A stretch of 64,000 nucleotides of DNA from an uncultured Acidobacteriota bacterium (GCA_963708055.1 OY970193.1:5135869-5199868), one strand, 5' to 3'; shown: positions 1,739 to 13,052, counted from the first letter of the stretch. Made by a program: numbers and translations. The notes: generated by a model not told the origin, from the sequence alone.

Positions 1739-1935
1739 CCAGTGTGGACGCCAGAAGTGCCGGAGAAATCCGGAAACTTCTAAAACGCCTAAAGCGTTAA
1801 AACCCTGTTCGCGAAGAACTCCTTCAGAGTTCAAACGTAATCCTGCTCAGTTGCTCCCCGGAGTTCGCCATCTCCGGAATCCATGTAGAACAAACGCCTT
1901 CGGCGTGTTACCCAGTCCTTTTGAGGTCCCAAATA

Positions 1936-4900
1936 ATGAATTTCTTTAGAAATTTCCCCCGCCAGACTGCCAATATTTGTCTGATTATTTTAATGGCCGC
2001 TGCGCTTGTCGCCGCTCAACAAGCGCGTGGCACGTTGCGAGGTCTGATCACCGATGAACTGGGCGCCGCCATCGTCGGCGCTAACGTAACTCTGACCGAC
2101 ACCTCCGGCGTCCAAAAAAAGACCACGACCAACGGTGAAGGCGTTTACAATTTTGCCGGACTGGCTCCCGGCAAATACACGTTGCAGGCGATTGCACCAG
2201 GCTTCGCGCCATCAGACACTAAAGAAGTTGATATGGCTGCGACGCGCCAGAGCGTAGATCTCACTCTGCGCGTGACGATCGAAGAGAAAGTCACCGTTTC
2301 CGAAACTCCAGTCAGCATCGACTCCAATAACAACGCCAATCAAACCGTGATCTCAGGAAAAGATCTCGACGCTTTGCCTGACGATCCGGACGAACTGGCA
2401 GCAGCGCTCCAGGCTTTGGCTGGACCATCAGTGGGACCAAACGGCGGCCAGATCTTTATCGACGGTTTCACCGGCGGCAACTTGCCCTCAAAAGACTCGA
2501 TTCGCGAGATTCGCATCAATCAAAACCCCTTCGCCGCTGAGAACGATCAACCATCCGCGCGCATCGACATTCTCACGCGTCCCGGCACTGACAAGTTTCG
2601 CGGCGGCGCGTCGTTGAATTTCAACGACGAAAGCCTCAACTCGCGTAATCCATTTGCCACCACTTCCAGCAAGCGGACGCCATTTCAGATTCGCCAGTAC
2701 GACATGAATCTGAGTGGTCCACTGGTAGCCAAGAAGGCGTCGTTCTTCGTCAATTTCGGTCGCATTGAAACTGACGATAACGAACTCGTTCGTGCCACCT
2801 TGCTTGACGAAGATCTTAATCCCGTCGAGTTTGGTCAAACGTTTGTTAATCCGAAGCGCAACTTGTTCTTTAGTCCACGTTTCGACTACGCGATTAACGC
2901 CAACAACACGCTCATTGTCCGTTACAACTACAATCGCTCCCTTACCGAGAATCAGGGTCTCGGCGGCTTTAATCTTCCCGAGCGAGCTTACAATTCTTTA
3001 TCCGTTAACCAGAATGTCCAGTTGACTGAAACGGCGATCCTGAATCCCACCACGATCAACGAAACGCGTTTTCAGTTTTCGCACAACAGATCCGAGCAAG
3101 AGGGAAGCAACGCGACGCCGGCATTGGACGTGAGTGGTGCATTTGGATCCGGCGGTTCACAGGTGGGCCATTCAACGAGCGAACGAAGCAGCTGGGAGCT
3201 GAACAATTTCACTGCGCAACAGCGAGGTACACACGCGATCAAGTTTGGCGGACGCGTCCGTCACATTGGGGTTGACGATATCAACGAAGGAAATTTCGGC
3301 GGCTACTGGACCTTTACCGGTGGTTACGGTTTGTCCAGTATTGAACGTTACCAACTGACGTTGAGACTTCAGGAGCAGGGAAAGACGCCGGAGGAGATTC
3401 GCGCGGCTGGTGGTGGCGCCACTGCATTCAGACTTCACACCGGAAATCCTTTTGCCGATGTCAGTCAAACCGATTACGGCGTGTTTATCCAGGACGACTG
3501 GCGCATTCGGCCGAACCTGACTTTCAGTTATGGTCTCCGTTACGAGACGCAAACTAACGCGCACAGCAAATACGACTTCGCACCGCGATTGGCGATTGCA
3601 TGGTCACCGGGAGCAGCAAACAGCGCCCGCCCGCCAAAGATGGTGATTCGCGTGGGCACTGGCTTCTTTTACAACCGCTTTAATGAAAATCAAACACTTC
3701 AGGCGAATCGCTACAACGGCGTTACTTTGATTCAAACCCTCGTTAGCGAACCGACCAAGGGACTGCTTCCGCCGAGCGTAAACGAACAGCTGTTTTCCGG
3801 CGACGCTTCCGTTTACGCGGTGCTGAACCAGTGGAGCCCCACGGCCGTTCCCTCGGTAGCCAATCTTTCTGCGACACAGGAATCAATTTGGCAGGTTGAC
3901 CCCAACCTTCAGATTCCCACTGTGTTTGTGATTGGCACGCAAGTGGAGCGACAGTTGCCGCGCAACATGACGATGGTTTTTGGTTTCTACAACATTCGCA
4001 TCGTTCACGTGATCCGCGCGCGCGACGTCAACGCGCCGTTGCCGGGCACGATCACTAACGCCACGCCAAACGGGATTCGTCCGGATCCGACCAGGGGTGA
4101 GATTAATCGCTACGAAGCCAGCGGCCAGTTTAATCAACGGCAGTTCTTTGTTGGTTTCAACAGCCGGTTCAGTCGTACTTTTCAGCTCAACGGCAACTAC
4201 TCTTTCAGCAAGTCGACTAACGATACGGATGGACAAGGCGGCCAGGTGTTCCCGATGAATTCGTATGATCTGACAGGCGAGTTTGGGCGCAGCTCTTTCG
4301 ACATTCGTCACCGGTTTACAGTTTTTGGAACCATCAATCTGCCGTGGTGGAAAGTGGTGCTGAATCCATTTGTGGTAGCGAACACTGGCCCAGGATTCAA
4401 CATCACCACCGGAGAGGACCGGAACCTCGACCGTCAATACAATGAACGCCCCAGCTTCGCAGCTGCGAATGCCAACTGTGACGCTCCAAACATCAGGTGC
4501 ACACGTTTTGGCAACTTCAATCTGACGCCCTTACCAGGCGAAAAGATCGTCCCCCGCAATTACGGTCAGGCGCCGGGATCATTTGTGGTTAACCTCCGTA
4601 TCAGCCGCACCTTTGCGTTTATCGACAAAGGCAGAGGTGGTGCAGCAGCCGCGGCGCCGGCAGGCCCCGGACCAGGTGGTCCGGGTGGCCCAGTAGCGGT
4701 TGCCGGAGGTGGTGGTCCGAGAATGGTGGCGGTTGGACCAGGTGGACCAGGCCCGCAAGGTGCTCCGCAGAGTGAGAAGCGATTCAATCTCAACGTCTCG
4801 ATCAACTTCCAAAACCTGCTTAACCACGTGAATCTTTCCGCGCCGGTGGGTAACCTGTCGTCGCCGAGTTTCGGTGAGTCGTTGGCATTGGGAGGAGCGT

Positions 4901-4980
4901 TCGGTGGGTTTGGTGGGGGTGGCGGCAACTCCGGCGCCGGTAACCGCAGGATCTACGCTCAACTACGCTTAAACTTCTGA
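1936..4980 (+). CDS. CarboxypepD_reg-domain TonB-dependent-receptor-like outer membrane protein
   Basis: Signal peptide, then GTLRGLITDELGAAIVGANVTLTD...GEGVYNFAGLAPGKYTLQA (carboxypeptidase regulatory-like fold). A plug-like segment follows, then a long beta-rich region ending in ...YAQLRLNF with a terminal aromatic. The track ORF starts at TTG 1921; ATG 1936 is preferred. Confidence 0.8.
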   Translation: MNFFRNFPRQTANICLIILMAAALVAAQQARGTLRGLITDELGAAIVGANVTLTDTSGVQKKTTTNGEGVYNFAGLAPGKYTLQAIAPGFAPSDTKEVDMAATRQSVDLTLRVTIEEKVTVSETPVSIDSNNNANQTVISGKDLDALPDDPDELAAALQALAGPSVGPNGGQIFIDGFTGGNLPSKDSIREIRINQNPFAAENDQPSARIDILTRPGTDKFRGGASLNFNDESLNSRNPFATTSSKRTPFQIRQYDMNLSGPLVAKKASFFVNFGRIETDDNELVRATLLDEDLNPVEFGQTFVNPKRNLFFSPRFDYAINANNTLIVRYNYNRSLTENQGLGGFNLPERAYNSLSVNQNVQLTETAILNPTTINETRFQFSHNRSEQEGSNATPALDVSGAFGSGGSQVGHSTSERSSWELNNFTAQQRGTHAIKFGGRVRHIGVDDINEGNFGGYWTFTGGYGLSSIERYQLTLRLQEQGKTPEEIRAAGGGATAFRLHTGNPFADVSQTDYGVFIQDDWRIRPNLTFSYGLRYETQTNAHSKYDFAPRLAIAWSPGAANSARPPKMVIRVGTGFFYNRFNENQTLQANRYNGVTLIQTLVSEPTKGLLPPSVNEQLFSGDASVYAVLNQWSPTAVPSVANLSATQESIWQVDPNLQIPTVFVIGTQVERQLPRNMTMVFGFYNIRIVHVIRARDVNAPLPGTITNATPNGIRPDPTRGEINRYEASGQFNQRQFFVGFNSRFSRTFQLNGNYSFSKSTNDTDGQGGQVFPMNSYDLTGEFGRSSFDIRHRFTVFGTINLPWWKVVLNPFVVANTGPGFNITTGEDRNLDRQYNERPSFAAANANCDAPNIRCTRFGNFNLTPLPGEKIVPRNYGQAPGSFVVNLRISRTFAFIDKGRGGAAAAAPAGPGPGGPGGPVAVAGGGGPRMVAVGPGGPGPQGAPQSEKRFNLNVSINFQNLLNHVNLSAPVGNLSSPSFGESLALGGAFGGFGGGGGNSGAGNRRIYAQLRLNF

Positions 4981-4991
4981 GCGAAAGGTTA

Positions 4992-5750
4992 ATGATGAAA
5001 AGATTTTATTTTTCAGTCGCATTGCTAATCTGTCTGACCGGATTTGAGGTTTCGGCGCAGGAACACGGGAATCCGAAGAACGGTTCGTCCGGCAATGCGA
5101 CTGGTCCAGCGGCGGTGACGATCACTGCCGAAAGTACTCCGATTGATCTGGCCCGCGCGGCTTTCACGGCACAGGGCGGCGAGAAGTTTCGCCAGGTGCA
5201 GAACATGATGCTGCGCGGTTCAGTTTCACTTTATCCGCCCAACAGCCCGCAATCGATACCAGGTTCGTTTTCGATCGTCACGGCAAACGACAGATTACGG
5301 ATGGAAATCGATGCGCGACCGATTATTGTCTTCAAGCAGATTTACGATGGGCAGCAATCGTATAGCTCGATGCCTGGAGTTGAAGTGCCGCCGTTGTCGA
5401 AGTTTGGACTTTCGGCGCTCAGCAAGTTTGACCAGCCCGGTTATAAAGTGTCAACGATTCCGAACAAGAAGAAGCTGCGTGGCTTTCGCATCACCGATCA
5501 AGACGGCTACGCCACTGACTTTTATATCGATGCAACTAACGGTCGGGTGATGGAGTTTTTTCTGACTTACAACGGCTTTACTTTTGGGACTGCCAACAGC
5601 AAGTTCAAAGATGTCGATGGAGTTTTGATCCCCTTCAGCTTCTCGCAACGCTTCGAAATGCCTCAAGGACCATTCTTCGCGGAATACAACGTCAAGGAAG
5701 TAAAACTTAACCAAACCCTCGGCGAAGACGCTTTCGCGATCCCGCGCTAA
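4992..5750 (+). CDS. secreted hypothetical protein (LolA-like size and beta pattern)
   Basis: Signal peptide MMKRFYFSVALLICLTGFEVSAQ. It lies 11 nt after the preceding OMP gene. No recognisable catalytic motif. Confidence 0.65.
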   Translation: MMKRFYFSVALLICLTGFEVSAQEHGNPKNGSSGNATGPAAVTITAESTPIDLARAAFTAQGGEKFRQVQNMMLRGSVSLYPPNSPQSIPGSFSIVTANDRLRMEIDARPIIVFKQIYDGQQSYSSMPGVEVPPLSKFGLSALSKFDQPGYKVSTIPNKKKLRGFRITDQDGYATDFYIDATNGRVMEFFLTYNGFTFGTANSKFKDVDGVLIPFSFSQRFEMPQGPFFAEYNVKEVKLNQTLGEDAFAIPR

Positions 5751-5756
5751 AACTAG

Positions 5757-5800
5757 CCACGGATGAACACGGATTGTTTACTGATCAGTGTTCATTCGTG
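5757..5800. repeat. family C hairpin (CACGGAT-type words) between convergent genes
   Basis: Arm cacggatgaacac (5759-) pairs with gtgttcattcgtg (-5800) at 12 of 13 positions. It fills the 52-nt gap between the stops at 5750 and 5803. Confidence 0.8.
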
Positions 5801-5802
5801 AC

Positions 5803-8757
5803 CTAAAACGCCGACAACAAAGCCTCAACATCGACAACGCCAAATCCCTGTCCGCGATCCCACTTGGAATTGTAATTCTGCGTTTTCTGTCGCAAAGCTG
5901 AACTGATCTGAGATGCAGCAGGCAGCGCCTGTCCTGAGCCCGCCACCCGAGAGAGTAGCAAGGCGATGGCGCCCGTTACATGCGGCGCCGCCATACTCGT
6001 ACCATCCATAGATACGGCGTCTTCAGAGGTGCCGGCGAGCGCGGCATTCACCCCTACTCCCGGCGCCGCCACTTCGGGTTTTTTTCGCTGGTCCCTGGTT
6101 GGTCCAAAGGAGGAAAATTTTCCAACCTGCAGCGGGGCAATTCCCACTGCGCCCACGGTGATGACGCTTTGGGCGGTGCCGGGAATACTCAACGTCATCT
6201 CCAAATCTATGAAATCTTCAAACGAGCTGGGATCACCGCCTGCCCGCTCGATCCAGGCGTGAATATCTCCGCCCTCACAAACCTTCTGACTTTGAATGTT
6301 GAGTTCCCATGGGCCATGCGGTACCGCAACGCCAGCGGTCCCAATCTCAATCCTAAGCAGGCTATCGCCATTGTCGATGTGGCGACGAGTAAATTCCATG
6401 GTATAGGCGGTGCCGTCAGCAAAGTTACTTTTCAGAGTTGGATTGATGGTGCTGAGCCAGGGTGTCCAATCACCGGCGGGATGATGAAGCCGAAAAGCAA
6501 ACTCGTCGGCTGAGTTCCACCAGAGTTCGAGCCGTTCTTTGCCCTTGGCGTTCGGATACCGTTGCCAGGGCAGAATTTCCTCTGCGCCGTCTCCCAGGGT
6601 TACTTTGGCATGGCCTTTCTTATGCCGCTCGTTTCCAGCCGACTTCACGATTACGCGGCCACCTGTCCGTCCGCCACCGGTGAAGGCGTCGAATCCTACC
6701 TCGAGCGCCGATTTTCCATCATGCGCGCCGGCATTCATTCCCTGGCTAACGTTGACCACAACCGGCAGCCCTAGTTTTGTTGCCATTTGGTCGATGAACG
6801 AGAGCGCATCAAGGTGACTCTTGGAGTAACCGATAGAACTACGACCGTCGGCGATGACCACTAGTAACCGTGCTTCTGGCGCAACTCCTCCAGCAAACTT
6901 ACCGGGCTTGTCTATCTTCCTGCCCGCCGCAATGCTGGCCACGTGCGTACCGTGGCCTGTCAGGTTTCGTCCGAGCGCCTGGGGGACTTTTTGGACCCGA
7001 ATATATTCGGCAATCATGTTTTCATCGTGATACGTGCCATAGCCGAATCCATTCGGAAATGTTCCAGTGCCATCTTTCTGGTCCCAAATGCCGACGATTC
7101 GCGAATTGCCGTTTGCGTCCAGAAAGGCTTTATGGAGTACATCTATGCCGTTATCGATGATCGCGATCAGCGCGCGTCCTCCCTCTTCTTCGTATGGACC
7201 ACCCGCACTCGGATAACTTTTTGCCACTTTGATGAATGGTATGGATCGATCGCAGTCTGATATACCAACCTGAGCACTTTCGTTAACTGAGATCACGTCA
7301 GGATCGGTGAGAAGCGCTTTCACGGTTTGCTCGGAACCCTGAGCGGAAATGATCGTGCCTAGCCGCGTTTCCAGCACCAAATCGGTCACGGGCCCTGGTT
7401 GCCAGTTAGGATCCGCTACGCGAATTAACAGTGGGCGTAGTGACGTTTCGCCGCTCTCTTCTGATGCCGGGTATTCATCGGCAAAGCCCATCCCGCGCGA
7501 ACGGCGCACGGCTTCCCAGAGCTTCTCAAAAATCGGTCGTGCCAGCGGATTCTCGCCGAGCTGCAAAAGTTGATCGAACTGGCGGTAAGTTGACGACACT
7601 GCAAACGCGTCTAAATCGGGATGGCAGATATATCGATCGAGGGCGGTCATGGCTTCGTCGTAACGCTCGAGTATAACCAGTGCTTCGACGCGCGTAGCAT
7701 AGTCCCAGACTTTAATCTCTTCGGTTTCCTCGAGGCGTTTGATCTCTTCCAGTAACCGAAACGCCGTTTCGCCGGCCTCGCTTAACTGCACGTCTTTGAT
7801 ACCATCGCGATGAGCACGCACAATACAACTGGCCATGTTGACCCCATGCCAGATTTCCTTCTGATCCTTTTCGTAGACGGAGCGATAGGCTTGGATGCTG
7901 AGCAACAGCAATGCATGTGATTCGATAGATTCAGGCGCGTCAAGATACTGTTGCTTATAATTTCGTCCTATCAGCCCATAAGCTTCTACGACTTCGCTTG
8001 GTTTGGAGGTTGGATCCTCCACGATTGAGTTAAGCACCTTGAGAGCTTCCTCAAACTCTCGCTGCTCGATCAGCGCTTGCGCATATTGCCGCCGGACTTT
8101 TTCGTTATGCGTTCCGGAAGCAATAACAGCAGCGCCGTAACTTCGCATCAACCGAAACTGCCGGTCCGATCGTAATGCCGCAAGATCGTTATTTGCATGT
8201 TTTTCAGGATAGGGGTAGGCCCGCTTTTCGATGTGCGTGGTGAACCGGTTTATGAGAGTCCTTGCCCGGTTTTGATCGTGCACTTTCAAAACATCGCGCA
8301 ACGCTTCCGAGAAGATCTCCTCGTTCCATTCGATCGGCTCCGCTAAGCCTTCAAGGGTAGTGCCCGACTCTTCCCTGGACGATGGAAGTAAAGCGGCGAG
8401 TTCTTGTCGTGCGTTTTGATCCACCTCGCGCCGGTCCCAGAATGGCAGCAGCCAGACATCGAGCGCGAAGAGTTTGCGTTCGTCATCACTGAGATTCTCC
8501 GCCAGAACCGCGATTGTCGGAGTTGGGCTCATACGTGCGACTGCGATCTGATCGTGGACGAGGGGTGAGTCGGCTGCCTTCCGCGATAACACGGCCAAAA
8601 TCACCTGACACTGAGCCATGAATGGTTGAGGGTCTTGATCCGGCAATGACTCGGAAGAAATCCAGCGATCAAATCCGTTGACCGGCAGCGGACGGATGAG
8701 AGTTTCTTTAACGAAAGAAAGATCGGCTTCAGCGTGAATGATGTAAGCGATAGACAT
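5803..8757 (-). CDS. cytoplasmic multidomain protein: TIR-like N-terminus, helical TPR-like region, I9-propeptide-like segment, S8 subtilisin-family peptidase
   Basis: No signal peptide. aa 1-110 show an alternating beta/alpha pattern (AYIIHAE..., VILAVLSRKAADSPLVHDQIAVA) typical of bacterial TIR. aa ~150-430 are helical repeats. The S8 catalytic residues are D535 (AIIDNGID), H602 (GHGTHVAS), N709 (SAGNE) and S921 (GTSMAAPHVTG). GGAGG lies 6 nt upstream of the ATG. Confidence 0.8.
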   Translation of the reverse strand: MSIAYIIHAEADLSFVKETLIRPLPVNGFDRWISSESLPDQDPQPFMAQCQVILAVLSRKAADSPLVHDQIAVARMSPTPTIAVLAENLSDDERKLFALDVWLLPFWDRREVDQNARQELAALLPSSREESGTTLEGLAEPIEWNEEIFSEALRDVLKVHDQNRARTLINRFTTHIEKRAYPYPEKHANNDLAALRSDRQFRLMRSYGAAVIASGTHNEKVRRQYAQALIEQREFEEALKVLNSIVEDPTSKPSEVVEAYGLIGRNYKQQYLDAPESIESHALLLLSIQAYRSVYEKDQKEIWHGVNMASCIVRAHRDGIKDVQLSEAGETAFRLLEEIKRLEETEEIKVWDYATRVEALVILERYDEAMTALDRYICHPDLDAFAVSSTYRQFDQLLQLGENPLARPIFEKLWEAVRRSRGMGFADEYPASEESGETSLRPLLIRVADPNWQPGPVTDLVLETRLGTIISAQGSEQTVKALLTDPDVISVNESAQVGISDCDRSIPFIKVAKSYPSAGGPYEEEGGRALIAIIDNGIDVLHKAFLDANGNSRIVGIWDQKDGTGTFPNGFGYGTYHDENMIAEYIRVQKVPQALGRNLTGHGTHVASIAAGRKIDKPGKFAGGVAPEARLLVVIADGRSSIGYSKSHLDALSFIDQMATKLGLPVVVNVSQGMNAGAHDGKSALEVGFDAFTGGGRTGGRVIVKSAGNERHKKGHAKVTLGDGAEEILPWQRYPNAKGKERLELWWNSADEFAFRLHHPAGDWTPWLSTINPTLKSNFADGTAYTMEFTRRHIDNGDSLLRIEIGTAGVAVPHGPWELNIQSQKVCEGGDIHAWIERAGGDPSSFEDFIDLEMTLSIPGTAQSVITVGAVGIAPLQVGKFSSFGPTRDQRKKPEVAAPGVGVNAALAGTSEDAVSMDGTSMAAPHVTGAIALLLSRVAGSGQALPAASQISSALRQKTQNYNSKWDRGQGFGVVDVEALLSAF

Positions 8758-8975
8758 GACAATCCTCCAACGTGCGGGAGTGTGGAGACGTTAAGGACCT
8801 ATACTGATGTCGCTCTGAAAGCGAGGATCGACGCTCGAAGTTTAGCGCGGTTGCGTTTATCGATTGAATCGGATCTTCTAAAGGCGCAATTGCCCGCCAG
8901 TTTACCGTTATGCTCGTTGAGGTAACGCTGTTGCTGAGCGCGCCCGTTGACTAAACAAAATACAAATACCAACCA

Positions 8976-9536
8976 CTAAACGCTCATGATCTCGTGTTCT
9001 TTGCTCTTCGCTAGTTCGTCGATTTTGGTGATGTAGGTGTCGGTGAGTTTTTGGATCTCTTGCAAGGCGTCGCGTTCGGAGTCTTCGGAGATGGCTTTGT
9101 CTTTGAGCATCTTCTTGAGACGGTCGTTGGCGTCGCGGCGGTGAACGCGCACGGCGGTGCGGTGATCTTCGGCGACGTCGTGGATCTGCTTCGCCATTTG
9201 CCTGCGACGTTCTTCAGTAAGCGGAGGAATCGGAATGCGAACGAGTTTGCCGTCGTTCGAAGGGTTCAAACCCAGATCAGAAGAGCGAATGGCTTTTTCC
9301 ACCGCGCCAAGCTGAGTCAGATCCCAGGGCTGCACCGTCAACAACTGCGGCTCGGGTGCGTGCACTGAGGCCATCTGGTTTAGAGGCGTCGGAGTGCCGT
9401 AGTAATCAACTGTCACGTTGTCGAGAATGCTGACTGCAGCACGTCCGGTGCGAATACTGGCGAGCTTGCGCTTGAAGTCGTCGACTGCACCTTCCATTCG
9501 GGGCTTTGCTTCTTTGATTACGTCCTTTTCACTCAT
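8976..9536 (-). CDS. frr: ribosome recycling factor
   Basis: 186 aa. Full-length match to the Frr pattern (...IRTGRA...LL..V.V.YYG...PL.Q.A......). Conserved position after pyrH. Confidence 0.95.
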   Translation of the reverse strand: MSEKDVIKEAKPRMEGAVDDFKRKLASIRTGRAAVSILDNVTVDYYGTPTPLNQMASVHAPEPQLLTVQPWDLTQLGAVEKAIRSSDLGLNPSNDGKLVRIPIPPLTEERRRQMAKQIHDVAEDHRTAVRVHRRDANDRLKKMLKDKAISEDSERDALQEIQKLTDTYITKIDELAKSKEHEIMSV

Positions 9537-11074: not shown

Positions 11075-11986
11075 TTAGCTCGCCGCCACGACAGATTCAG
11101 TGCTTTCAGCAGGCGCGGGTTCGGGTTCCGTGGTTTCTGCCTGTGGTGTCATGGATGCGGATTGCTCCTCCCCGCCACTGACGCTGCCGACGTCATCACG
11201 TGTAAGTTCTGACGCTGCCAGTTCACCTGCCGCACCTTCGCCGGCAGCAGCTTCGCCGTCTTCACCTGGCGCACCACTGACAACGCCGCCTTCGGTTGCG
11301 ATCTGATTGCCTTCGACGATCGCGTCAGCGATACGCGAGGCAAACAGGCGAACGGCGCGCAAAGCGTCGTCGTTGCCGGGAATCACGTAATCGATTCCTT
11401 CGGGTGAACAGTTTGTATCGACTACTGCAACGATGGGGATTCCGAGTCGATTCGCTTCCGCGACTGCGATCTCTTCCTTCTTCACATCGATAATGAAGAT
11501 GGCATCCGGAAGGCGAGTCATCGACTTGATACCGGAAAGGTTCTTGTTAAGACTTTCGCGTTCGCGATCGAGTTTGATGCGTTCTTTCTTGGTCAGTTTC
11601 TCGTAACGACCGTCAGTTTGCATGCTCTCGAGATCCTTGAGTCGTTTGATCGACTTCTGGACCGTTTGAAAGTTGGTGAGCAAACCACCGAGCCATCTTT
11701 GATTGACGTAATACTGGCTGCACTTTTCCGACTCTTCGCGAATGGCGTCCTGCGCCTGTCGCTTAGTGCCGACAAAGAGAACTGTTTTGCCCCTGTCCTC
11801 AGCGATCAGGTTGGTGACGAAGGCAATTGCCTCGCGAAACATGCGCTGAGTTTTTTGCAGGTCGATGATGTAAATGCCGTTGCGCTCGCCAAAGATGTAT
11901 TCCTTCATCTTTGGGTTCCAGCGCCTTACCTGGTGGCCGAAGTGAACACCGGCCTCCAGTAGCTCTTTCATGGTAACCGAAACCAA
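11075..11986 (-). CDS. rpsB: 30S ribosomal protein S2 with acidic Ala/Glu-rich C-terminal tail
   Basis: [19 protein letters not shown] motif. TTG 11986 has AGGAG 7 nt upstream and gives [10 protein letters not shown], which resembles E. coli MATVSMRDML. ATG 11971 is the alternative start. Confidence 0.92.
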
Positions 11987-12096
11987 ACTAAAGCTCCTTC
12001 TGTTAATTGGTTTAATGTACTCGCCGCAACCAGTCGAACTTCCAACGAAGGCAACCAATTGTGCTGCGGCAATGGACTTTGATTATTTCCGATTTT

Positions 12097-12169
12097 CAAT
12101 TGCCGATTGCCAATTTCAACCGATCAGCCATCAATTCAAATTGGCAATCGGCAATTGGCAATCGCCAAT
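12097..12169. repeat. family B hairpin (7-nt GGCAAT[CT] words) between rpsI and rpsB
   Basis: caattgccgattgccaattt (12097-12116) and aaattggcaatcggcaattg (12138-12157) are perfect 20-nt inverted arms. A further gcaatcgccaat unit follows. Confidence 0.95.
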
Positions 12170-12174
12170 GCAAA

Positions 12175-12567
12175 CTATCGTTTCGAAAACTGGAACCGCT
12201 TCCTCGCGCCCTTTTGTCCGTACTTCTTACGTTCCTTGATGCGCGGATCGCGGGTAACGAGACCGGCGTGCTTGAGCGCTGGGCGCAAGTCGGCATTGTA
12301 TTCGAGCAGGGCTCGCGTAATGCCGTGTCGGATAGCTCCTGCCTGACCCGCAGGACCGCCGCCGCTAACGTTAATGAGGAGGTCGAATTTGTTTGTGGTC
12401 TCAGTCAGTTGTAACGGCTGACGAATGATCATCCGCAACGTTTCGTTGGGGAAATAGCGATCAAAGGCTTTGTGGTTAACCTTCACTTCGCCGGCGCCGG
12501 GTCGCAAATAAACGCGGGCTGTTGCCGATTTGCGTCGCCCGGTTCCGTAATACTGAATTTCAGCCAC
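12175..12567 (-). CDS. rpsI: 30S ribosomal protein S9
   Basis: 130 aa ending ...[16 protein letters not shown]. Directly downstream of rplM. Confidence 0.96.
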
Positions 12568-12596
12568 AGTAATCTTCCTCTATCTTTCAGCTAATC

Positions 12597-13052
12597 TTAT
12601 TTTGAGTTGGTTTTGTGAGTCAGGTCGAAGGCTTGCGGGCGCTGGGCTGAGTGCGGGTGCTCGGCATCGGCGTAAACCTTGAGCTTCTTCGCCATCGCCT
12701 TGCCGAGCTTTGACTTCGGCAGCATGCCCTTGATGGCGAGCTCGATGACTCGCTCCGGGCGCTTGGCCAACATCTCCTTCGCGGTGGTCTGTCTCAGACC
12801 TCCCGGATAAAGTGTGTGATGACGGTAAAGTTTCTGCTCGACTTTGTTTCCCTTCAACACCGCTTTACGCGCATTGATCACGACCACGTGATCACCGGTA
12901 TCGAGGAAGGGAGTCCATTCCGGACTACGCTTGCCTGTCAGAATCGAAGCAACCTCAGAAGCCAGATGCCCGACGGTTTGCCCGTCCGCATCGACCACGT
13001 ACCATTTTCGTCTTCCAGCGAGTTCCTTACCGCTGGGGAAGTATGTCGACAT
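12597..13052 (-). CDS. rplM: 50S ribosomal protein L13
   Basis: KWYVVDA.GQ.VG.LAS.VA..L.GK...TP..D.GD.V.VINA pattern. 151 aa. Confidence 0.96.

Follow-up and report, generated by a model that had tools for sequence, protein, structure and literature searches.

A TIR, TPR-S, and subtilase fusion beside frr in an uncultured Acidobacteriota bacterium: a candidate sensor-protease of a conflict family

Protease-centred immunity has lately emerged as a common thread between the innate immunity of bacteria and that of eukaryotes, its examples being gasdermin and caspase-like systems, type IV Thoeris, and the fungal HET-Q2 subtilases. Published work has shown that proteases carrying repeat sensors activate gasdermins, in bacterial gasdermin (bGSDM) operons as well as in fungi, where HET-Q2-like S8 or CHAT proteases are combined with TPR, ANK, or WD40 repeats, and that in type IV Thoeris the product of a TIR domain activates a caspase-like effector. 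In addition, Kaur, Burroughs, Iyer, and Aravind (2020; PMC7159879) described as "System 3" a predicted proteolytic cascade of a trypsin and a NucA nuclease, sometimes with an S8 protease. Here, we analyze a gene at positions 5803..8757 (minus strand) of a 64,000-nucleotide stretch of DNA from an uncultured Acidobacteriota bacterium (GCA_963708055.1 OY970193.1:5135869-5199868), referred to below as the window. The gene encodes a single chain of 984 amino acids, in which the open reading frame (ORF) list, Pfam, and AlphaFold2 (AF2) modeling delineate a TIR domain, a helical TPR-S domain, a prodomain-like unit, and an S8 subtilase of the Csp type. We lean, with a little more confidence than doubt, toward the interpretation that this TIR-subtilase protein is an accessory cytoplasmic sensor-protease of a conflict family (anti-invader or abortive-infection type) whose core is a zymogen-style Csp-like subtilase. 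The interpretation gains support because the gene is accessory, patchily distributed, and fast evolving, and because its relatives have modular N-termini and effector-type neighbors.

The gasdermin systems share with this family a fusion of a protease and a repeat domain beside a ~250-aa effector that is activated by cleavage. The window protein matched the generic PADLOC "subtilase" model (1e-23), and one relative (locus L018) is clustered with a bona fide bGSDM (PADLOC, 243 bits), a trypsin, and a NucA nuclease, the family member there being truncated by a transposon. The window protein differs in its Csp-type protease and its N-terminal TIR domain, and the usual partner of its relatives is probably Cyt-like; no bGSDM adjoins the window gene, whose neighbors are frr and a convergent gene for a 252-aa protein, or most relatives, L018 being the only one with a bGSDM nearby. 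The likeness to "System 3" lies in four loci (L006, L016, L018, and L163) that join Trypsin_2, Endonuclease_NS, and the S8 module in one operon or protein, whereas trypsin and NucA are both missing from the window protein and from its neighbors, and the text of PMC7159879 is silent on a TIR-TPR-S-S8 chain, a Csp-type fold, and a ~255-aa partner. As in type IV Thoeris, a TIR domain (its fold closest to the SPARTA TIR-APAZ protein and other immune TIRs) is coupled to a protease output, but the window TIR has a Gln in place of the catalytic Glu, no ThsA-like or caspase-like effector gene adjoins it, and no PADLOC Thoeris or SPARTA model matched. We found no description of the TIR-TPR-S-S8 architecture or of the ~255-aa partner family in the literature searched. 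Most likely, the chain is a variant of protease-centred modular conflict systems that falls outside the gasdermin, Thoeris, and "System 3" types by their defining components. Its architecture and the Cyt-like partner of its relatives are unexpected, and the window copy is a stripped-down form.

Domain architecture of the TIR-subtilase protein

The reading frame runs from an ATG start through 984 intact codons to a TAG stop, and a GGAGGA ribosome-binding site (RBS; 8763-8768) ends 5 nt before the ATG. The initial annotation, made from the sequence alone, had described it in these terms (984 aa, good RBS, no signal peptide), and the coordinates, the GGAGGA motif, and the hydropathy profile agree. 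Neither a signal peptide nor a transmembrane (TM) segment was found at the N-terminus or in a 19-residue hydropathy scan of the protein, which is predicted to be cytoplasmic because its N-terminus is acidic and the highest hydropathy value is 1.37. The full-chain AF2 model, built with 36 homologues in the alignment, reached a pLDDT of 85.5 and a pTM of 0.84, with low-confidence linkers at aa 427-437 and 496-510. About 100 full-length homologues with 42-66% identity were found in metagenomes and metagenome-assembled genomes (MAGs), and conservation was read from an alignment of 103 homologues.

The subtilase matched Pfam Peptidase_S8 above its cutoff, with 114 bits (9.6e-33). Its N-terminal part (aa 525-715; 6613..7185, minus strand, as are all features of the gene), delimited by Pfam and by matches to Csp structures in the Protein Data Bank (PDB), holds D535, H602, and N709; a beta-rich insert follows (aa 716-840; 6238..6612; DSSP strands at 716-836), and the C-terminal part (aa 841-984; 5806..6237; best Pfam stretch 854-973) holds S921 within a GTSMAAPHV motif. 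The catalytic set is nearly invariant, with H602 and N709 kept in all 103 homologues and D535 and S921 in 102 each, so that the S8 peptidase with an intact D535/H602/N709/S921 set and an insert, as initially annotated at aa 525-984, was confirmed by both Pfam and the alignment. What had been taken for a generic S8 protease with an I9 propeptide, however, is rather of the Csp germination-protease structural type. The C-terminal ~540 residues matched the PDB Csp proteases (CspA, CspB, and CspC) with sequence E-values of 1e-28 to 3e-34, the alignment to the Csp proteases 9sj6 and 9t7m ran colinear through the insert, and the subtilase region matched CspA/B/C with a structural TM of 0.80-0.83 in Foldseek. 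Since the insert is colinear in sequence and matched in structure, we assign the ~150 residues between N709 and S921, by sequence and model, to the Csp jellyroll.

Csp proteins, ~550 aa in length, belong to the spores of Firmicutes and cleave pro-SleC, which CspB activates in spore germination. With the Csp germination subtilases (4i0w, 9pr8, 9pr9, 6mw4, and 9sj6), the window protein shares the jellyroll between the oxyanion Asn and the catalytic Ser; it also has a candidate N-terminal prodomain and would follow the logic of a zymogen or processing protease. It differs in its Acidobacterium host, in a 430-aa extension made up of TIR and TPR-S, and in having no SleC-like neighbor. The NCBIfam Csp models scored far under their cutoffs (CspBA, 156 vs 1250 bits; CspC, 108 vs 675 bits). 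The window protease is thus of the Csp structural type, but both the NCBIfam thresholds and its context place it outside the Csp germination proteases.

Ahead of the catalytic domain, aa 438-495 (7273..7446) form a small prodomain-like beta/alpha unit, delimited by the AF2 secondary structure and the length of the Csp alignment. Residues 441-493 are modeled in the order beta-beta-beta-alpha-beta, with strands at 441-447, 461-466, 469-474, and 488-493 and a helix at 476-483. An I9-type propeptide had been proposed for aa ~440-500; a prodomain-like unit is indeed found there, but the I9 assignment did not hold, as Inhibitor_I9 gave no Pfam match in the 984-aa protein. Foldseek alignments extended over ~580 columns for the uncleaved CspC/CspA and ~473 for the mature CspB, and because those to the uncleaved forms are ~100 columns longer, the unit is consistent with, but not proven to be, a Csp-type prodomain, which in Csp-type subtilases is autoprocessed and stays bound. 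The linker that follows (aa 496-524; 7186..7272) is structurally unconfident (pLDDT <50 at aa 496-510) and conserved in sequence, S494, S505, P507, F508, Y515, G520, E524, and G526 being kept in 90-103 of the 103 homologues. By analogy with subtilisin and Csp zymogen biology, the linker is a candidate autoprocessing or pseudosubstrate segment. At aa 496 (7270-7272), near the invariant S494 and within this proposed segment, the window has a Gln where 92 of the 103 homologues have a Pro; together with the Gln at position 70 of the TIR domain, Q496 makes the window allele atypical within the family.

The middle of the chain, aa 146-425 (7483..8322), is all-helical and presumably acts as a sensor or scaffold. 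It passed two Pfam models, TPR-S (57.5 bits against a cutoff of 27.6; 2.3e-15; aa 216-311) and MAP3K_TRAF_bd, formerly DUF4071 (32.1 bits against 24.1; 8e-8; aa 217-375), as the initial annotation of aa ~150-430 as a TPR-like, DUF4071/MAP3K-TRAF-binding-like region had anticipated. AF2 placed thirteen helices at aa 146-421 with pLDDT >90 and only a short linker between them and the TIR domain (aa 126-145), and the Foldseek matches include ASK1 (8qgy) and designed TPR proteins. With the TRAF-binding region of ASK1/MAP3K5 the domain has both Pfam models and the 8qgy match in common; the window protein has no kinase, however, so the likeness is one of scaffold fold alone. The protein also departs from STAND/NLR receptors, which have a central P-loop NTPase between the effector and the repeats, since no NTPase domain (NACHT/NB-ARC) was found in it by Pfam, NCBIfam, or PADLOC. 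For TPR-S, no description of a function was found in the literature searched.

The N-terminal 125 residues (8383..8757) were delimited by the domain model, Foldseek, and the family profile. They show the alternating beta/alpha layout that had been noticed at aa 1-110, with a pLDDT of 89.9 when modeled alone; TIR domains have a flavodoxin-like beta/alpha fold of five strands. Foldseek aligned this model at the top with SPARTA TIR-APAZ, TLR15, MyD88, RPS4, RPP1, TcpB, ThsB, AbTir, TRIF, and MAL (TM 0.6-0.73; E down to 9e-5), and the family N-terminal profile matched almost exclusively TIR chains in the PDB (TLR15 at 8e-5). On the window sequence, Pfam TIR_2 reached 17.5 bits, under its 28-bit cutoff, and many homologues carry a precomputed PF13676 match. 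Because of the structural superposition and the family-profile matches, we regard the TIR fold of aa 1-125 as established at the level of model and profile.

The residue that determines whether this TIR could be an enzyme is at position 70. An ungapped profile alignment with the plant TIR NADase 7xoz pairs the majority Glu of the family with that of "SSWCLDEL", and in the window this column reads D69-Q70, with the codon CAG at 8548..8550; the D-Q that had been read there by eye is thus in the correct register. The catalytic glutamate, in the position equivalent to SxWCxxEL, is required of TIR NADases of the SARM1, ThsB, AbTir, and plant TIR type, and E-to-Q is the inactivating, standard NADase-dead substitution in SARM1, ThsB, and AbTir. 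Since a Gln occupies this position, the window TIR, judged by its sequence, cannot be a canonical NADase and is most likely a scaffold. Among the 103 homologues the column holds Glu in 73, Ala in 7, Gln and Asp in 6 each, Leu in 4, and other residues in the rest, and among the domains conservation is lowest in the TIR, whose identity to the window averages 35% against 63-67% for the S8 core. The near-invariant protease tetrad and the variable Glu column together argue that the protease is the constrained core and that TIR catalytic capacity was lost repeatedly in the family.

These data bear on whether the chain is a fused Thoeris-like unit, in which a NAD-derived signal made by the TIR activates the protease in cis or in neighboring molecules. 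A TIR and a protease do share one chain, most homologues keep the Glu, and activation of a caspase-like protease by a TIR has published precedent. Against this stand the Gln at the catalytic position of the window, the absence of SLOG, Macro, and SAVED domains by Pfam and of any Thoeris model by PADLOC, and an entire clade of relatives, those linked to a metallophosphoesterase, that is without the Glu. We consider a Thoeris-like unit distinctly improbable.

Accessory occurrence of the gene at the frr junction

A scan of 185,579 species-representative genomes found the full architecture at ~25 loci in five or more phyla, with carriers scattered over Acidobacteriota, Bacteroidota, Actinomycetota, Betaproteobacteria (Piscinibacter), Thermodesulfobacteriota, and a Steroidobacter MAG. 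The position next to frr is confined to a small Pyrinomonadaceae-like clade made up of the window, L002, L003/L001, L080/L081, L105, and L164, and the flanks of the window are 84-97% identical to Pyrinomonadaceae MAGs. To gauge how constant the gene is at this site, we turned to 80 metagenomic loci that share 77-88% identity with the window in frr; 44 of them extend at least 1.5 kb downstream, and the TIR-subtilase gene follows frr in one and is absent in 43. The junction is empty at ~15 loci, where frr is followed, after 7-134 nt, by the same convergent 252-aa, TonB-like, and 414-aa genes as in the window; at such sites (e.g., L086, L093, and L110) a hairpin terminator alone lies between frr and the convergent gene. 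A few close relatives have other inserts of 1-2 kb there. Where the TIR-subtilase gene is present, further ORFs may stand between it and frr (L002:3852-4340, L003:9123-9797, and L080:6866-7846), and these are mutually unrelated. Because empty sites have the same flanks and the intervening ORFs are unrelated, the stretch that separates frr from the 252-aa gene is variable in this Pyrinomonadaceae-like lineage, and the TIR-subtilase gene is an accessory insertion, not a core gene. The junction is also of note at L102, L111, L115, L150, and L160. Of the three intervening ORFs, two encode proteins predicted to be secreted and one a multi-TM protein of 326 aa; being unrelated to one another, they were rejected as a conserved partner.

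The gene also evolves faster than its surroundings. In the frr-syntenic genomes, identity to the window is 67-97% for the flanking genes and 57-64% for the TIR-subtilase proteins, so that by sequence comparison the gene appears fast-evolving relative to its flanks.

The distribution weighs on a further explanation, that the protein is a regulated housekeeping or developmental Csp-like protease which activates an unlinked cellular substrate, as CspB does pro-SleC, with TIR and TPR as mere interaction modules. Such a role would agree with the germination proteases being the closest solved relatives, with a single chromosomal site by rpsB-tsf-pyrH-frr in at least six genomes under purifying selection, with the ordinary surrounding genes, and with a TIR Glu that is dispensable in ~30% of the family. 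A housekeeping protease would not be expected to be absent from 43 of the 44 close relatives at the junction, to occur in ~25 of 185,579 species of scattered phyla, or to diverge much faster than its neighbors; nor do swappable N-terminal enzymes (lipase, trypsin, and EEP), adjoining nuclease, phosphoesterase, and Cyt-like genes, and Csp scores far under the NCBIfam cutoffs fit it. We think a housekeeping role unlikely, given that orthologues are neither universally conserved at this position nor matched by a characterized housekeeping family.

No partner ORF or remnant was found in the window, either in the gap between frr and the gene or over its full length, with the partner hidden Markov model (HMM) and by comparison with the intervening ORFs of orthologous loci. 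The initial annotation had likewise noted that no partner gene was evident and had called the protein self-contained; this applies to the window copy but not to the family, most members of which have an adjoining effector-like gene. One could regard the gene as an orphaned remnant of a two-gene system, in which the loss of the partner and of the catalytic residue of the TIR left little function or none. Among the six frr-locus orthologues, the window copy diverges most (58-64% identity); it has Q70 for the Glu that most relatives keep, as the orthologues in L002, L003, and L164 do, and has Q496 for the common Pro. A decaying gene, however, is hard to reconcile with an intact 984-codon ORF that is preceded by a good RBS and keeps all of D/H/N/S, or with six partner-less orthologues that are all intact despite saturated synonymous divergence, with dN/dS of 0.18-0.24 where dS is unsaturated. 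Because of these intact orthologues and dN/dS values, the solo form appears to have been kept by long-term, though loose, selection, and we give little credence to a functionless remnant.

Module exchange and adjoining genes among relatives

The module of aa ~440-984, prodomain-like unit plus Csp-like S8 domain, recurs behind other N-terminal domains, namely Lipase_3, Trypsin_2, or Trypsin_2 with Exo_endo_phos. Lipase_3-S8 fusions are found in many Rhodobacterales, in Planctomycetota, and in others. In the TPR-S branch, Trypsin_2 takes the place of TIR in two variants (P0102 and P0106), which are paired with TIR-NucA neighbors. Two TIR_2-Endonuclease_NS proteins, L016:10389-11825(-) and L163:11630-12907(-), have a TIR that closely resembles the N-terminus of the window protein, and their genes are convergent to, and ~10-170 nt from, Trypsin_2-TPR-S-S8 variants. 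Since a window-like TIR occurs in these nuclease fusions, the TIR cassette appears to move between protease and nuclease chains. JGI labels many full-length homologues "endonuclease G" (P0005, P0006, P0011, P0016, P0020, and others) although they contain no nuclease domain, probably by annotation transfer from relatives fused to or beside NucA; other databases label homologues "S8 family serine peptidase" or "TRAFs-binding domain-containing protein". PHROGs returned generic protease families only, and no relatives were found on viral contigs in IMG/VR.

In six loci of Actinomycetota and Acidobacteriota, a calcineurin-type metallophosphoesterase of ~430 aa lies directly upstream of the family member (L013:1589-2878, L014:8675-9967, L019:8522-9991, L021:8694-9971, and L028:8647-9987; the sixth, L027, is fragmented). 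All six linked members have lost the TIR Glu (R, A, A, A, Q, and Q), which suggests that the phosphoesterase takes over the enzymatic role of the TIR.

The second accompanying gene encodes a ~255-aa protein without a Pfam domain. It lies upstream of TIR-branch members in L005, L009, L012, L017, L026, and L162 (L005:9124-9915, L012:8990-9991, L026:5287-6069, and L162:6164-6958), and in the lipase branch it lies directly downstream of lipase-S8 fusions and overlaps their stop codons (L048:11794-12609, L050:11833-12612, and other Rhodobacterales loci). Clustering at 50% identity divides the family into at least 622 clusters, and at other loci its members occur as fusions with a Peptidase_C14 caspase, Trypsin_2, or Endonuclease_NS. 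When its profile was compared with the whole PDB, the only matches were Cyt δ-endotoxins, namely Cyt1Aa (E 0.004, or 3.7e-5 once the profile was deepened) and Cyt2Aa (0.27). A profile-profile comparison with Cyt genes from Bacillus plasmids kept this register over 93 aligned columns (P = 2.8e-4), though with an hhalign probability of only 41%. No single partner sequence matched Pfam, including its Cyt family, at E up to 10, and a homologue search seeded with a Cyt1Aa fragment gave no matches. On these profile comparisons, we regard a Cyt-like nature of the ~255-aa partner as reasonably probable. Cyt toxins are ~250-aa membrane-damaging proteins that are activated by proteolytic trimming, and because of this similar size and mode of activation, the ~255-aa partner would fit a protease-armed effector. 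The family may thus be a membrane effector armed by a protease, analogous to gasdermin; as a gasdermin itself it was rejected, since PADLOC bGSDM did not match.

A protease of this kind might alternatively mature an exported toxin, processing a secreted Cyt-like cytolysin or lipase directed against other organisms. Cyt toxins are offensive cytolysins activated by proteases, and relatives include the Lipase_3 fusions and one with a VgrG3-like neighbor. Nevertheless, no signal peptide was found on the protease or in the aligned ~255-aa partner sequences, the associations with TIR, NucA, caspase, and gasdermin are those usually seen in suicide systems that act inside the cell, and no toxin partner of any kind accompanies the window copy. 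We consider a role in maturing an exported toxin very improbable.

A bolder form of the conflict interpretation is that the solo window gene is a partner-less member of an undescribed cell-suicide class, in which a Csp-like subtilase (elsewhere a caspase or trypsin) arms a ~255-aa cytoplasmic homologue of the Cyt cytolysins of Bacillus thuringiensis, with TIR, lipase, and nuclease as add-on effectors. We regard this as possible, though doubtful. If true, it would define a second family of membrane-permeabilizing effectors under sensor proteases, independent of gasdermins, and the solo TIR(Q70)-TPR-S-S8 form would act by proteolysis alone.

A scan of 105 ORFs around 20 non-syntenic loci found, besides the bGSDM of L018, a TIR-TM protein at L026, proteases of the CHAT and caspase types, phospholipases of the patatin type, additional paralogues with TPR-S/S8, and DDE transposases, and ordinary metabolic genes were also present. 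The context is conflict-rich at some loci and ordinary at others. At the bGSDM-containing locus of an Acidobacteriota relative (L018:4721-12597), the order is bGSDM, a trypsin-like ORF, an Endonuclease_NS ORF, and the TIR-TPR-S-S8 gene, which ends prematurely beside a transposase-like ORF (11698-12597).

Proposed action of the protein and its genomic surroundings

We hypothesize that the subtilase is kept inactive by its own prodomain-like unit, the conserved linker, and the TPR-S domain. The TPR-S/MAP3K_TRAF_bd domain would bind a trigger or release an inhibitory contact, and the N-terminal TIR would drive self-association. The subtilase may then autoprocess at the prodomain/catalytic junction, in the conserved linker, and then cut its targets. 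For most relatives, an adjoining gene encodes what is likely the target or co-effector, whether the ~255-aa, probably Cyt-like protein, the calcineurin-type phosphoesterase, or NucA nucleases, and in ~70% of relatives the TIR retains the Glu with which it would be a NADase. In the window copy, because of Q70 and the lack of a partner gene, the sole enzymatic output would have to be the proteolysis of unlinked host or invader proteins. On this reading, the protein would function in defense or abortive infection.

The inference of a conflict module, already part of the initial annotation, has gained comparative support: a TIR fold was found, the gene is patchy across phyla rather than a conserved core gene, and no characterized housekeeping family matched. 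Several observations nevertheless weigh against it. The window copy and several relatives (L162 and L163) lie among ordinary metabolic or housekeeping genes and not in defense islands. PADLOC assigned the window protein to no named defense system, in line with the earlier remark that it could not be placed in any named defense family. Neither a base-composition anomaly at the gene nor a target-site duplication or mobile-element genes at the insertion were found. Without a partner and the TIR Glu, the system in the window may be crippled. Furthermore, the prodomain assignment is based on alignment length and not on residue-level superposition, and since the lipase-fused relatives have no TPR-S domain, a sensor role of TPR-S does not generalize to the family.

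If the conflict interpretation is correct, the family adds to protease-centred immunity a Csp-type subtilase, of a kind hitherto met in spore germination alone, that drives a modular system as its unchanging part; a TIR that alternates between catalytic and non-catalytic states; and a large uncharacterized partner family, probably Cyt-related, that is linked to three unrelated protease classes. It would offer a new pair of effector and activating protease that can be tested directly, and a natural experiment to learn how a TIR acts when it is no enzyme. For the window gene itself, the analysis provides a corrected annotation and clear evidence for an accessory gene lodged beside a core operon.

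The surroundings of the gene agree with the neighbors given in the initial annotation, frr upstream and a convergent gene for a secreted protein downstream. Upstream and on the same strand, the ORF list places rplM, rpsI, rpsB, tsf, pyrH, and frr (8976-9536, minus strand). The 218-nt gap between frr and the gene (8758..8975, minus strand) holds the RBS, and no sigma-70 consensus promoter for the gene was found in it. On the other side, a spacer (5751..5802) with a hairpin terminator-like element on the minus strand (5757-5772) separates the gene from the convergent neighbor (4992-5750), which encodes the 252-aa protein with a signal-peptide-like N-terminus. This neighbor was rejected as a partner because the same flanks and the same gene occur in genomes without the TIR-subtilase gene. 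Beyond it, on the plus strand, lie genes for a TonB-dependent-receptor-like outer membrane protein of 1019 aa (1921-4980) and a predicted secreted protein of 414 aa (306-1550). Both of these proteins contain long Gly/Pro/Ala-rich low-complexity runs, e.g., GGPGGAAPAGGGAPAAGGAPQGGQG, which give rise to long spurious antisense ORFs on the opposite strand.

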